DNA from: Escherichia coli
GTDB lineage: Bacteria > Pseudomonadota > Gammaproteobacteria > Enterobacterales > Enterobacteriaceae
Length of the DNA stretch: 64,000 bases
Assembly (NCBI RefSeq): GCF_003018255.1
Contig: NZ_CP027440.1
Strand: one strand, 5' to 3'
Position numbers and translations under genes: made by a program. The notes below the pieces were generated by a model, which worked only from the letters and a program-made list of their open reading frames with translations, was not told the DNA's origin and made no database searches. Positions 23,532 to 36,518 of this stretch are shown piece by piece; within the stretch, counting starts at the first letter, position 1, and every line of letters starts with the position of its first letter.

Positions 23532-23598
23532 AGCACGTCCTCTGGTAAAAAATTACCAACCCTGTCAATCCACAAGAATATAGATACTGCAAAGACGG

Positions 23599-23634
23599 TT
23601 TAAACATGTGTTCATATTTAAACATGTGCTCATA
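23599..23634. repeat. Perfect tandem 18-bp direct repeat (TTTAAACATGTG[T/C]TCATA x2) upstream of psuK
   Basis: Two adjacent units differing at one position, 68-103 bp upstream of the psuK ATG. A partial third copy follows. Confidence 0.6.
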
Positions 23635-23771
23635 GTATGCATGTTTTACGTAAAGTAAATTACCGCCAGAGATGCAAAATGGGCAGATTTGAGCAGGCTC
23701 ACAAAACGCGATTAAATGCCTGAATTATAAAAACGGGGAATTTGTGACGGAATGCACAGAACAGGAACACT

Positions 23772-23797
23772 AAAAAAGGGCAGAAATTAATCTGCCC
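23772..23797 (-). terminator. Rho-independent terminator (GGGCAGA-ttaatt-TCTGCCC plus U-run on minus strand) distal to fruA
   Basis: Stem-loop followed by six U on the minus-strand transcript. Confidence 0.6.
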
Positions 23798-23913
23798 TTG
23801 AGGAAATAACCTTAGTGTTTGATGAAAGTTTCAGGTTTCCACTAAAAGATAAAACCATTTAAATTCATAAAATTACATTCACAAACCGGTCATTCTCTTT
23901 GCGCGCATCAAAT

Positions 23914-23944
23914 GTTCCAGGGCAGGAAATTTCTGCCCTGGAAC
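23914..23944 (-). terminator. 12-bp perfect stem-loop immediately 3' of fruA (GTTCCAGGGCAG ... CTGCCCTGGAAC)
   Basis: Near-perfect 31-nt palindrome 11 nt past the fruA stop. U-tract is weak. Confidence 0.45.
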
Positions 23945-23954
23945 ACACCTTTTA

Positions 23955-31990: not shown

Positions 31991-32064
31991 CTCCCCTTCT
32001 CTTTTCTGCCGTTTTTAGCCAGGATTAACGCTCAGTTAACTTTTAAGAGTATTGCGGAGCCGTT

Positions 32065-33051
32065 GTGACCAGGACCAACCTCATCACCGGTTTTCTCGGC
32101 AGCGGGAAAACTACGTCGATTCTTCATCTGTTAGCCCATAAAGATCCCAACGAAAAATGGGCGGTACTGGTTAATGAATTTGGGGAAGTCGGAATTGATG
32201 GTGCTTTGCTCGCCGATAGCGGCGCATTGCTGAAAGAGATCCCCGGCGGCTGCATGTGCTGCGTTAATGGTTTACCCATGCAGGTAGGATTGAATACCTT
32301 ACTGCGTCAGGGAAAACCAGACCGCTTGTTGATAGAGCCGACCGGACTGGGTCATCCGAAACAGATCCTCGATCTCTTAACCGCGCCCGTGTATGAACCG
32401 TGGATAGATCTGCGCGCCACGTTGTGCATTCTCGATCCACGCCTGCTGCTGGACGAAAAAAGCGCCAGCAATGAAAACTTCCGTGACCAGCTGGCTGCCG
32501 CAGACATTATTGTCGCCAATAAATCCGACCGTGCGACGCCCGAAAGTGAGCAAGCGCTACAGCGCTGGTGGCAGCAAAATGGTGGCGATCGGCAATTAAT
32601 TCACAGCGAGCATGGGAAAATTGACGGTCATCTTCTGGATTTGCCGCGTCGCAATTTAGCCGAGTTGCCCGCCAGCGCCGCGCATTCTCATCAGCATGGC
32701 GTGAAAAAAGGGTTAGCAGCGTTAAGCCTGCCAGAGCATCAACGCTGGCGTCGCAGTCTGAACAGCGGGCAAGGATATCAGGCCTGTGGCTGGATATTCG
32801 ACGCTGATACGGTATTCGACACCATTGGCATTCTGGAATGGGCGCGACTTGCACCGGTGGAACGCGTCAAAGGCGTGATGCGTATTCCCGAAGGGCTGGT
32901 GCGAATCAACCGTCAGGGCGATGACCTGCACATTGAAACGCAAAACGTTGCGCCACCGGACAGTCGTATTGAGCTGATTTCCAGCAGCGAAGCTGACTGG
33001 AATGCCTTGCAGAGCGCGCTGTTGAAGCTTCGTTTAGCGACCACCGCGTAA
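32065..33051 (+). CDS. yeiR: COG0523-family zinc-binding GTPase
   Basis: GTG start. P-loop GFLGSGKTT and CxCC motif (GGCMCCVNG). Confidence 0.9.
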   Translation: MTRTNLITGFLGSGKTTSILHLLAHKDPNEKWAVLVNEFGEVGIDGALLADSGALLKEIPGGCMCCVNGLPMQVGLNTLLRQGKPDRLLIEPTGLGHPKQILDLLTAPVYEPWIDLRATLCILDPRLLLDEKSASNENFRDQLAAADIIVANKSDRATPESEQALQRWWQQNGGDRQLIHSEHGKIDGHLLDLPRRNLAELPASAAHSHQHGVKKGLAALSLPEHQRWRRSLNSGQGYQACGWIFDADTVFDTIGILEWARLAPVERVKGVMRIPEGLVRINRQGDDLHIETQNVAPPDSRIELISSSEADWNALQSALLKLRLATTA

Positions 33052-33089
33052 GGTTGCCTGCGTTTTTCAGTAAGATAATTAGAGAAAAT

Positions 33090-33803
33090 ATGATTAAAAA
33101 TTTGCCGCAAATAGTGTTGTTGAATATTGTCGGCCTCGCGCTGTTTCTTTCCTGGTATATTCCCGTTAATCATGGATTCTGGTTGCCGATTGATGCGGAT
33201 ATTTTTTATTTTTTTAATCAGAAACTGGTCGAAAGTAAGGCCTTTTTGTGGCTGGTTGCATTGACCAACAATCGCGCTTTCGACGGTTGTTCACTGCTGG
33301 CGATGGGAATGTTGATGCTGAGTTTCTGGCTGAAAGAAAACGCCCCAGGCAGACGACGTATCGTGATTATTGGTCTGGTCATGCTATTAACTGCAGTGGT
33401 ATTAAACCAGCTGGGTCAGGCATTAATTCCTGTAAAACGGGCCAGCCCAACATTGACTTTTACCGATATTAACCGCGTCAGCGAACTGCTCTCTGTTCCC
33501 ACGAAAGATGCCTCACGAGATAGCTTTCCCGGCGATCACGGTATGATGCTGCTTATTTTTTCGGCATTCATGTGGCGTTATTTCGGCAAAGTTGCAGGCC
33601 TTATCGCCCTTATTATTTTTGTGGTTTTTGCGTTTCCCAGAGTAATGATTGGCGCACACTGGTTTACTGACATCATTGTCGGTTCGATGACCGTGATATT
33701 GATCGGTTTGCCCTGGGTGTTGCTGACGCCATTAAGTGATCGATTAATCACCTTTTTTGACAAATCACTACCGGGAAAAAACAAACATTTCCAAAACAAA
33801 TAA
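33090..33803 (+). CDS. lpxT: Lipid A 1-diphosphate synthase / undecaprenyl-pyrophosphate phosphotransferase (PAP2 family)
   Basis: Start trimmed to MIKNLPQ giving 237 aa. PAP2 membrane phosphatase. Confidence 0.87.
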   Translation: MIKNLPQIVLLNIVGLALFLSWYIPVNHGFWLPIDADIFYFFNQKLVESKAFLWLVALTNNRAFDGCSLLAMGMLMLSFWLKENAPGRRRIVIIGLVMLLTAVVLNQLGQALIPVKRASPTLTFTDINRVSELLSVPTKDASRDSFPGDHGMMLLIFSAFMWRYFGKVAGLIALIIFVVFAFPRVMIGAHWFTDIIVGSMTVILIGLPWVLLTPLSDRLITFFDKSLPGKNKHFQNK

Positions 33804-33818
33804 CTCACAGTAATTAAC

Positions 33819-33859
33819 ATCATCAGGGTTATTTTTATAGTGAGGATAATCCTGATGAT
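33819..33859 (+). other. Imperfect 14-bp inverted repeat (ATCATCAGGGTTAT ... ATAATCCTGATGAT) just 3' of lpxT
   Basis: One mismatch in 14 bp, 13-nt loop. Possible lpxT terminator or regulatory hairpin in the long mepS leader region. Confidence 0.3.
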
Positions 33860-34214
33860 GCGCACCGTGCTTTCATCCATCGCGCGCAAAAATCATTCTC
33901 TAAGTAAATGAATGGATTGCATGCGTTTCACTCAATCGTACTTTAATTGACCAATCCCGTTTATTAACTTTCTGTATCACTTTTTCTTATAAAGAATCAT
34001 GTAAAACCGCTCGCCAAGACCGCACCAATCGGGTAATCTCGAACTCGTTTTGCCTCGGCGGTAGATTATCCTCACAGCATATAATTTTGTGCGTTAGTCC
34101 ACAGATTTGGCCTTAAGGAATTGTTTCAACATGCCCAGGTAATTAGTCTCGTGTCGCTTGGCATTTTTTTATAACGATATTTGTCGTTAAGGACTTCAAG
34201 GGAAAACAAACAAC

Positions 34215-34781
34215 ATGGTCAAATCTCAACCGATTTTGAGATATATCTTGCGCGGGATCCCCGCGATTGCAGTAGCGGTTCTGCTTTCTGCATGTAGTGC
34301 AAATAACACCGCAAAGAATATGCATCCTGAGACACGTGCAGTGGGTAGTGAAACATCATCACTGCAAGCTTCTCAGGATGAATTTGAAAACCTGGTTCGT
34401 AATGTCGACGTAAAATCGCGAATTATGGATCAGTATGCTGACTGGAAAGGTGTACGCTATCGTCTGGGTGGCAGCACTAAAAAAGGCATCGATTGTTCTG
34501 GTTTCGTACAGCGTACATTCCGTGAGCAATTTGGCTTAGAACTTCCGCGTTCGACTTACGAACAGCAGGAAATGGGTAAATCTGTTTCCCGCAGTAATTT
34601 GCGTACGGGTGATTTAGTTCTGTTCCGTGCCGGTTCAACAGGACGCCATGTCGGTATTTATATCGGCAACAATCAGTTTGTCCATGCTTCCACCAGCAGT
34701 GGTGTTATTATTTCCAGCATGAATGAACCGTACTGGAAGAAGCGTTACAACGAAGCACGCCGGGTTCTCAGCCGCAGCTAA
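34215..34781 (+). CDS. mepS: Peptidoglycan DD-endopeptidase / NlpC-P60 lipoprotein
   Basis: 188 aa, lipobox LLSAC, NlpC/P60 catalytic Cys (GIDCSGF). Confidence 0.93.
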
Positions 34782-34828
34782 TAAACCGTTTGGATGCAAT
34801 CCCTTGGCTATCCTGACGAGTTAACTGA

Positions 34829-34856
34829 AAGCACTGCTTAGGCAGTGCTTTTTTGT
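34829..34856 (+). terminator. Rho-independent terminator of mepS
   Basis: Stem AGCACTGC/GCAGTGCT, loop ttag, followed by a T-run. Confidence 0.7.
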
Positions 34857-34961
34857 TTTCATTCATCAGAGAAAATGATGTTTCCGCGTCTTGATCCAGG
34901 CTATAGTCCGGTCATTGTTATCTTTTAAATGTTGTCGTAATTTCAGGAAATTAACGGAATC

Positions 34962-36518
34962 ATGTTCATACGCGCTCCCAATTCTGGACGTAAGCTCCTG
35001 CTTACCTGCATTGTTGCAGGCGTGATGATTGCGATACTGGTGAGCTGCCTTCAGTTTTTAGTGGCCTGGCATAAGCACGAAGTCAAATACGACACACTGA
35101 TTACCGACGTACAAAAGTATCTCGATACCTATTTTACCGACCTGAAATCCACTACTGACCGGCTCCAGCCGCTGACCTTAGATACCTGCCAGCAGGCTAA
35201 CCCCGAACTGACTGCCCGCGCGGCGTTTAGCATGAATGTCCGTACGTTTGTGCTGGTGAAAGATAAAAAAACATTCTGTTCATCTGCGACTGGTGAGATG
35301 GACATTCCACTAAAAGAATTGATTCCGGCGCTCGACATTAATAAAAATGTCGATATGGCGATCTTACCCGGTACGCCGATGGTGCCGAACAAACCCGCAA
35401 TCGTCATCTGGTATCGCAACCCGTTGTTGAAAAATAGTGGCGTGTTTGCCGCGCTGAATCTCAATCTGACGCCTTCTCTCTTTTATAGTTCACGGCAGGA
35501 AGATTACGATGGCGTCGCCCTCATTATTGGTAATACTGCGCTATCTACCTTTTCTTCACGTTTGATGAACGTTAATGAATTAACCGACATGCCGGTCCGT
35601 GAAACTAAAATTGCGGGCATTCCTCTGACCGTTCGGCTTTATGCAGATGACTGGACATGGAACGATGTGTGGTACGCATTTTTACTGGGTGGCATGAGTG
35701 GAACTTTCGTTGGACTTCTCTGCTATTACCTGATGAGTGTGCGTATGCGCCCAGGCAGAGAAATCATGACCGCCATCAAGCGCGAACAATTTTACGTGGT
35801 GTATCAACCGGTGGTGGATACACAAGCTTTGCGGGTAACGGGCCTGGAAGTACTGCTACGCTGGCGGCATCCAGTAGCAGGAGAAATCCCCCCGGATGCC
35901 TTCATTAACTTTGCCGAAGCGCAAAAGATGATTGTGCCACTGACTCAGCACCTGTTTGAGTTGATTGCCCGCGATGCCGCAGAATTAGAAAAAGTACTGC
36001 CGGTAGGCGTCAAATTTGGCATTAACATTGCGCCGGCCCACTTGCACAGCGAAAGCTTTAAAGCGGATATCCAGAAACTGCTCACTTCCCTGCCCGCACA
36101 CCATTTCCAGATTGTGCTGGAAATTACCGAGCGCGATATGCTGAAAGAGCGAGAAGCCACACAACTCTTCGCCTGGCTGCATTCGGTCGGCGTAGAAATT
36201 GCTATTGATGACTTCGGCACCGGGCACAGCGCGCTTATCTATCTTGAGCGTTTTACGCTCGATTATCTGAAAATTGATCGTGGATTTATCAACGCCATCG
36301 GTACGGAAACGATCACTTCACCCGTACTTGACGCGGTGCTGACGCTGGCGAAACGCCTCAATATGCTGACGGTTGCTGAAGGGGTCGAAACGCCAGAACA
36401 GGCACGATGGCTAAGCGAACGCGGCGTTAATTTCATGCAAGGCTACTGGATTAGTCGCCCGTTACCGCTGGACGATTTTGTTCGCTGGCTGAAGAAACCG
36501 TATACGCCGCAGTGGTAA
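34962..36518 (+). CDS. rtn: Membrane-anchored EAL-domain c-di-GMP phosphodiesterase
   Basis: 518 aa, N-terminal TM/periplasmic domain plus C-terminal EAL domain (EVLLRW). Confidence 0.87.
   Translation: MFIRAPNSGRKLLLTCIVAGVMIAILVSCLQFLVAWHKHEVKYDTLITDVQKYLDTYFTDLKSTTDRLQPLTLDTCQQANPELTARAAFSMNVRTFVLVKDKKTFCSSATGEMDIPLKELIPALDINKNVDMAILPGTPMVPNKPAIVIWYRNPLLKNSGVFAALNLNLTPSLFYSSRQEDYDGVALIIGNTALSTFSSRLMNVNELTDMPVRETKIAGIPLTVRLYADDWTWNDVWYAFLLGGMSGTFVGLLCYYLMSVRMRPGREIMTAIKREQFYVVYQPVVDTQALRVTGLEVLLRWRHPVAGEIPPDAFINFAEAQKMIVPLTQHLFELIARDAAELEKVLPVGVKFGINIAPAHLHSESFKADIQKLLTSLPAHHFQIVLEITERDMLKEREATQLFAWLHSVGVEIAIDDFGTGHSALIYLERFTLDYLKIDRGFINAIGTETITSPVLDAVLTLAKRLNMLTVAEGVETPEQARWLSERGVNFMQGYWISRPLPLDDFVRWLKKPYTPQW

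Follow-up and report, generated by a model that had tools for sequence, protein, structure and literature searches.

Between lpxT and mepS, the Escherichia coli chromosome carries a 411-bp spacer (33804–34214) that opens with an inverted repeat, which raises the question of what this repeat does and what fills so long an intergenic region. All positions refer to the window, the whole 64-kb stretch of DNA analysed here, which is E. coli chromosome from the yeiR-lpxT-mepS-pdeN region; a window position equals the NC_000913.3 position minus 2235764. A 601-nt query spanning the repeat matched 5425/5426 complete E. coli genomes, with lpxT and mepS as the flanking annotations. The K-12 RefSeq record has lpxT ending at 2269567 and mepS starting at 2269979, with no annotation in between. 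The initial annotation had reported the same spacer length, and suggested that the space could hold either a long, regulated mepS 5' UTR or an unannotated small RNA. We conclude that the inverted repeat very probably forms the stem-loop at the 3' end of the lpxT mRNA, whether this is transcribed by itself or together with yeiR, and that the repeat acts as RNA of the + strand. This reading is based on its position, its stability, a mapped RNA 3' end, conservation through compensatory changes, and orthologues that carry a T-run. The features of the locus are as follows.

33090–33803, + strand: lpxT coding sequence (Kdo2-lipid A phosphotransferase), from the ORF list and the RefSeq annotation of near-identical E. 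coli genomes and K-12.
33801–33803, + strand: lpxT stop codon, TAA.
33818–33860, + strand: inverted repeat, very probably the 3'-terminal stem-loop of the lpxT transcript, from the repeat search, folding and conservation with compensatory changes (80 species).
33863, + strand: RNA 3' end mapped by Term-seq (K-12 2269627), from Adams et al. 2021, eLife, Supplementary file 1.
33861–34040, + strand: untranslated stretch 3' of the hairpin with C in excess of G, a possible Rho loading zone, from GC skew.
33965–33995, + strand: conserved region upstream of mepS P2, from the conservation profile.
34007–34046, + strand: mepS promoter P2, with -35 element CGCTCGCCA at 34007–34015, -10 element GGTAATCT at 34032–34039 and transcription start site (TSS) at 34046 (-169), from Mendoza-Vargas 2009, Table S1.
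34156–34214, + strand: short mepS leader from P1, with TSS at 34156 and a 59-nt UTR, from the Kim 2012 TSS table.
About 34192–34202, + strand: OxyS pairing site, with C(-18) at 34197, from the numbering of the OxyS paper (G37-G47, C(-18)G).
34215–34781, + strand: mepS coding sequence (peptidoglycan endopeptidase), from the ORF list and annotation.

A repeat search placed the two arms at 33818–33832 (CATCATCAGGGTTAT) and 33846–33860 (ATAATCCTGATGATG), each 15 nt long, 14/15 (93%) complementary and 13 nt apart. This is within 1 nt of the imperfect inverted repeat originally described at 33819–33859. The repeat starts 14 nt past the lpxT stop codon, and the sole non-Watson-Crick position of its stem, G33828/T33850, is a G·U wobble in the + strand RNA. 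The + strand RNA folds with -25.8 kcal/mol (z = -4.73), a stability found in none of 200 shuffles, and the fold of the - strand RNA is slightly weaker. RNAfold lengthens the 15-bp stem to 20 pairs by means of apical U·G and U-A pairs. The stem is AU-rich, with 6/15 G-C pairs, and the apical part is large. Scanning the window for 15-nt arms with at least 14 matches and a loop of at most 20 nt yielded just two repeats of this quality, at 33818–33860 and 23913–23945, and none in ten dinucleotide shuffles.

The second of these repeats (TGTTCCAGGGCAGGAAATTTCTGCCCTGGAACA) is located just upstream of the coding end of fruA on the minus strand, within the psuK-fruA gap (23532–23954). At 423 bp this gap exceeds the lpxT-mepS spacer, so that the earlier statement ranking the spacer first among non-coding stretches, the autotransporter remnant excepted, is slightly wrong.

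The hairpin is present as a single copy in 5425/5426 complete E. coli genomes, with no annotated feature beneath it, and a 72-nt query around it is covered to at least 80% in 5424 of the 5425 matching genomes. The one interrupted hairpin among these 5425 genomes is that of E. coli 20A24 (L086; NZ_CP147044.1, about 4341478), in which an IS1A has inserted in the right arm, between lpxT and mepS. The Escherichia sequences compared, from E. coli, E. albertii and others, all share the same outer 10 bp (CATCATCAGG / CCTGATGATG), save for one C-to-T change in lineage L003 that keeps a U·G wobble. The apical 13 nt vary between Escherichia species, and all four bases occur at position 33828 in one lineage or another. 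Given this polymorphic position and the IS1 insertion, selection for perfect pairing is not absolute.

To compare the locus more widely, we assembled 80 Enterobacteriaceae loci by a MepS scan, taking one genome per species. The lpxT gene is located upstream of mepS in 79/80 of these loci. Most of the 80 species have a spacer of about 411–426 bp, and this length persists at LpxT identities of only 65–80%. The downstream 250 bp of the spacer, which contain the promoters and leaders, are about 90% conserved, while conservation of the first 150 bp is patchy. Nearly all of the 80 species have a hairpin in the same position just past lpxT. The distance from the hairpin to the mepS ATG is kept within a few nucleotides, though about 100 bp of the spacer are poorly conserved.

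Covariation across Enterobacteriaceae, suggested as a check in the initial annotation, was determined on 31 sequences, drawn from about a dozen genera and aligned without gaps. It was found that the 14-bp helix covaries, with both sides changed in 12/14 pairs, and that none of 500 shuffles reaches any of the five measures used. Helix cells are 82.5% paired in these 31 sequences, compared to 28–49% when the 3' partner is slid. Furthermore, RNAalifold predicts a 9-bp core with 7 compensated pairs when supplied with no structure. The entire stem sequence has been exchanged with retention of pairing in Salmonella (ATTACCTTCAGCGATG / CATCGTTGAAGGTAAT), Kluyvera (AAAAAGAGGGC / GCCCTCTTTTT) and Siccibacter (AAAAATCCCCCGTTA / TAACGGGGGATTTTT). 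Internal stem mismatches, scored in a strand-neutral manner, comprise 13 G·T and 2 A·C (binomial p = 0.007, with the species being related and not independent). This excess of G·T indicates + strand RNA, rather than a DNA palindrome or - strand RNA. When the 31 sequences were turned into a covariance model, each locus yielded a single hit, and the only hit in the 64-kb window was 33812–33864 (15.2 bits).

Term-seq of MG1655 (Adams et al. 2021, Supplementary file 1) lists an RNA 3' end on the + strand at 2269627, with a score of 1323. This corresponds to window position 33863, 3 nt beyond the stem base, and the flanking sequence given in that study (ATTAACATCATCAGGGTTATTTTTATAGTGAGGATAATCCTGATGATGCGC|ACCGTGCTTT) agrees with the window. 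The 'orphan' class given to this end results from its distance of 60 nt to the stop codon, the limit for the 'primary' class being 50 nt; identification as the lpxT mRNA end would explain it. The peak is low and present in one of the three condition sheets, which, judging from its position in the file, is presumably the first (LB at OD600 0.4). No lpxT entry was found in the TERMITe tables. Transcription of lpxT itself is weak: Kim 2012 reports a TSS with 2 reads at window position ~33062, 28 nt 5' of the lpxT ATG and inside the yeiR-lpxT junction, and lpxT may therefore own a promoter besides yeiR read-through.

The E. coli hairpin is a stable stem-loop shortly 3' of a stop codon on the transcribed strand, as expected for an intrinsic terminator. 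The tail directly after the stem (CGCACCGTG) has 1 T in 9 nt, against the approximately five or more U within 8–9 nt taken to define a U-tract. Lacking a T-run, the E. coli hairpin fails the defining feature of an intrinsic terminator, and it is not called by a terminator scan. The orthologous hairpin is followed by a T-run in Kluyvera and relatives (L058, L059, L061, L062), Siccibacter (L065), Klebsiella (L066, L069), Atlantibacter (L080) and Cedecea (L082), and a consensus terminator scan calls the L062 hairpin as a terminator. Escherichia, Citrobacter, Salmonella, Enterobacter, Kosakonia and others have the hairpin without a T-run. The locus thus offers a clean comparative case of a terminator stem held by compensatory changes, with the U-tract present or absent by genus.

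We infer that the hairpin descends from, or is interchangeable with, an intrinsic terminator of lpxT. The U-tract would have been lost in Escherichia, Citrobacter, Salmonella and Enterobacter, leaving a hairpin that is probably inefficient as a lone terminator. Transcription would most likely be halted further 3', in the untranslated stretch with more C than G, probably by Rho, and 3'-to-5' exonucleases would then trim the RNA back to the hairpin, setting the 3' end and stabilising the lpxT mRNA. The 3' end could also arise by weak termination at the hairpin itself, and the combination of Rho and trimming appears the somewhat likelier route. The hairpin would also mark where the lpxT transcript gives way to mepS with its own promoters. 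The GC skew is -0.17 to -0.44 over 33860–34060 (80-nt windows) in an AT-rich stretch without a defined rut site, and is weakly compatible with Rho loading. Adams 2021 Supplementary file 2 contains no Rho-termination region at 2269600–2269999, which is weakly informative and of little power because lpxT expression is very low, as judged from the 2 TSS reads.

The remainder of the spacer is largely accounted for by mepS. Published mapping, the check proposed for a mepS leader, places one start at 34046 (row 'spr -169' of Mendoza-Vargas 2009, Table S1) and another at 34156, 59 nt 5' of the ATG and supported by 188 reads (Kim 2012). These starts are named P2 and P1, respectively, by Elgrably-Weiss et al. 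(RNA 2024; PMC10798246), and the long and short mRNAs of that study, offset by 109 nt, are consistent with P2 at 34046. OxyS pairs at the mepS ribosome-binding site. The long leader is predicted to sequester this site, and its fusion is expressed at a 5.6-fold lower level. Between the end of the repeat, at 33860, and P2, the furthest-upstream published mepS TSS found, lie 186 nt. As the repeat is upstream of both starts, it is located outside the mepS leader. Hence, the idea of a long, regulated mepS 5' UTR holds for the spacer and not for the repeat. The spacer is long mainly because it contains the published two-promoter, OxyS-targeted mepS leader (169 nt from P2, 59 nt from P1) and a conserved promoter-upstream region, to which the lpxT 3' end is added.

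Several further observations were made in the promoter-proximal part of the spacer. The block at 33965–33995 (TTAACTTTCTGTATCACTTTTTCTTATAAAG; -81 to -51 of P2) shows an identity of about 90% or more between genera, and no regulator assigned to it was found. Many loci contain a Pho-box-like direct repeat, CTGTCAT-N4-CTGTCAT, with 13–15/18 matches to CTGTCATAWAWCTGTCAY and located -341 to -324 from the mepS ATG (L009, L011, L013, L021, L027, L034, L035, L042 and many others; locus positions ~2660–2677). The genera concerned include Citrobacter, Enterobacter, Leclercia, Kosakonia, Phytobacter and Trabulsiella, the distance to mepS being fixed. The direct repeat is degenerate in Escherichia and Salmonella, the corresponding window sequence at 33870–33887 (CTTTCATCCATCGCGCGC) matching at 11/18 positions, and a conserved ATTCAT-N8-ATGAAT palindrome is found 3' of it. 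The main text of an E. coli PhoB ChIP-seq paper mentions neither mepS nor lpxT. Published Term-seq 3' ends, recorded under at least two growth conditions, are also present at 34209 and 34211 (K-12 2269973 and 2269975), 4–6 nt before the mepS start codon; the single row with a Rho call is scored as not Rho-dependent. These ends point to an uncharacterised leader fragment, ~54 nt long from P1 or ~164 nt from P2, which would stop inside an A-rich stretch past the OxyS site.

Could the hairpin nevertheless serve mepS, as a conditional terminator or attenuator of lpxT-to-mepS read-through or as part of a very long leader structure? The lack of a U-tract makes read-through plausible, and both the spacer length and the hairpin-mepS distance are unusually constant between genera. 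There is also a 12-nt perfect complement (GTGAGGATAATC / GATTATCCTCAC) between the hairpin apex and 3' arm (33840–33851) and the P2 leader (34064–34075, +19 to +30). A complement as good occurs in 30 of 3000 shuffles when non-overlapping arms are required (nominal p ~0.01). It is restricted to E. coli proper: in E. albertii and the two further Escherichia lineages compared (L003, L005) the complementarity is gone and no compensatory change restores it. With no covariation outside E. coli, we record it as an observation only. Both published mepS starts found are far downstream of the hairpin, Kim 2012 has no TSS from the lpxT stop to P1, and mepS expression has been studied from its own two promoters, all of which makes a role in mepS control unlikely. 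The specific version suggested by the complementarity is that, in E. coli proper, lpxT-mepS read-through (in cis) or a stable lpxT 3' fragment (in trans) could remodel the long mepS leader that occludes the ribosome-binding site; more broadly, a hairpin that a large clade retains without a U-tract, and whose distance from mepS is fixed, could act in conditional termination. We regard this proposal as very unlikely; if true, remodelling of the leader would tie a peptidoglycan endopeptidase to a gene of lipid A modification. A DNA palindrome bound by a dimeric protein, such as one that regulates mepS or lpxT, or a nucleoid protein, is similarly improbable. The core CAGGGATCG-TTTT-CGATCCCTG is conserved in sequence as well as in pairing in many genera, contains two GATC sites and is located ~190–230 bp upstream of P2. 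Against this, the excess of G·T mismatches and the RNA 3' end mapped at the repeat base both fit RNA, the stem is wholly replaced and still paired in Salmonella, Kluyvera, Siccibacter and Atlantibacter, and a loop that varies from 4 to 15 nt would shift the spacing of the half-sites.

A small RNA or short transcript that starts within the repeat, and maybe encodes an 18-aa peptide, is to our mind extremely doubtful. A promoter-like site (TTAACA at 33814–33819, a 16-nt spacing, and TATAGT at 33836–33841) matches at 10/12 positions, an ORF is listed at 33840–33911, and a GAGGA Shine-Dalgarno sequence is found 8 nt 5' of the ATG at 33855. The site is a single one where shuffled sequences contain 2.2, and its -10 element is missing in E. 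albertii and outside Escherichia; the embedded sigma-70-like promoter, neither conserved nor associated with a Kim 2012 TSS, is hence unsupported. The 18-aa ORF is intact in 1/81 aligned sequences, varies both in length and in sequence within Escherichia itself, including E. albertii, and was rejected, as were three minus-strand spacer ORFs that are intact in 2–4/81. All spacer ORFs have at most 32 codons' worth of product (≤32 aa) and none is intact in more than 4/81 sequences, in agreement with the initial view that the spacer holds no convincing ORF. An Rfam scan of 32000–36000 with E up to 10 returned only chance miRNA and snoRNA matches far below gathering scores, no U-tailed terminator is found before P2, and a literature search found no link between lpxT and an sRNA. 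With no TSS listed in Kim 2012, no U-tailed terminator and no match to a described family, the small RNA first envisaged for the spacer finds no support. Finally, REP hairpins are common in E. coli intergenic regions, and the repeat might be a dispersed element (REP/BIME or a MITE remnant) or a functionless chance palindrome. Either is barely credible: the hairpin occurs at one place per genome (median 1; 5425/5426 genomes) rather than in many copies, which effectively refutes a dispersed repeat, and the covariance model likewise matches one site in the window and one in each of the 80 loci. As for chance, the stability and rarity of the hairpin are far beyond those of shuffles, and it is conserved with compensatory changes.

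The preferred reading, a stem-loop at the 3' end of the lpxT mRNA, assigns a probable function to a very stable and so far unannotated hairpin found in 5425/5426 complete E. coli genomes (intact in 5424), and matters little beyond annotation. Elements of this kind are known, and the hairpin adds an unannotated example. It shares its spacer with the known OxyS-repressed mepS leader transcribed from P2 and P1 (PMC10798246), and differs in belonging to neither leader. Its resemblance to a canonical intrinsic terminator lies in the place after the stop codon, the stable hairpin and the mapped 3' end, and extends to a full hairpin with T-run in the Kluyvera, Klebsiella, Siccibacter, Atlantibacter and Cedecea orthologues. 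The E. coli copy, however, has a long AU-rich stem with a large apical part and no U-tract. A further counterpart is provided by Dar and Sorek (NAR 2018; PMC6061677), who describe stable stem-loops without U-tracts that delimit Rho-dependent E. coli transcripts at the 3' end and shield these Rho-terminated RNAs from PNPase and RNase II. Here lpxT differs in that its Rho dependence and exonuclease trimming are presumed, with no Rho region assigned in Adams 2021. The likeness comprises a stable stem-loop just past the gene with a tail that is not U-rich and a precise steady-state 3' end directly downstream, at lpxT 3 nt away, and may extend to the untranslated sequence beyond it, in which C exceeds G.
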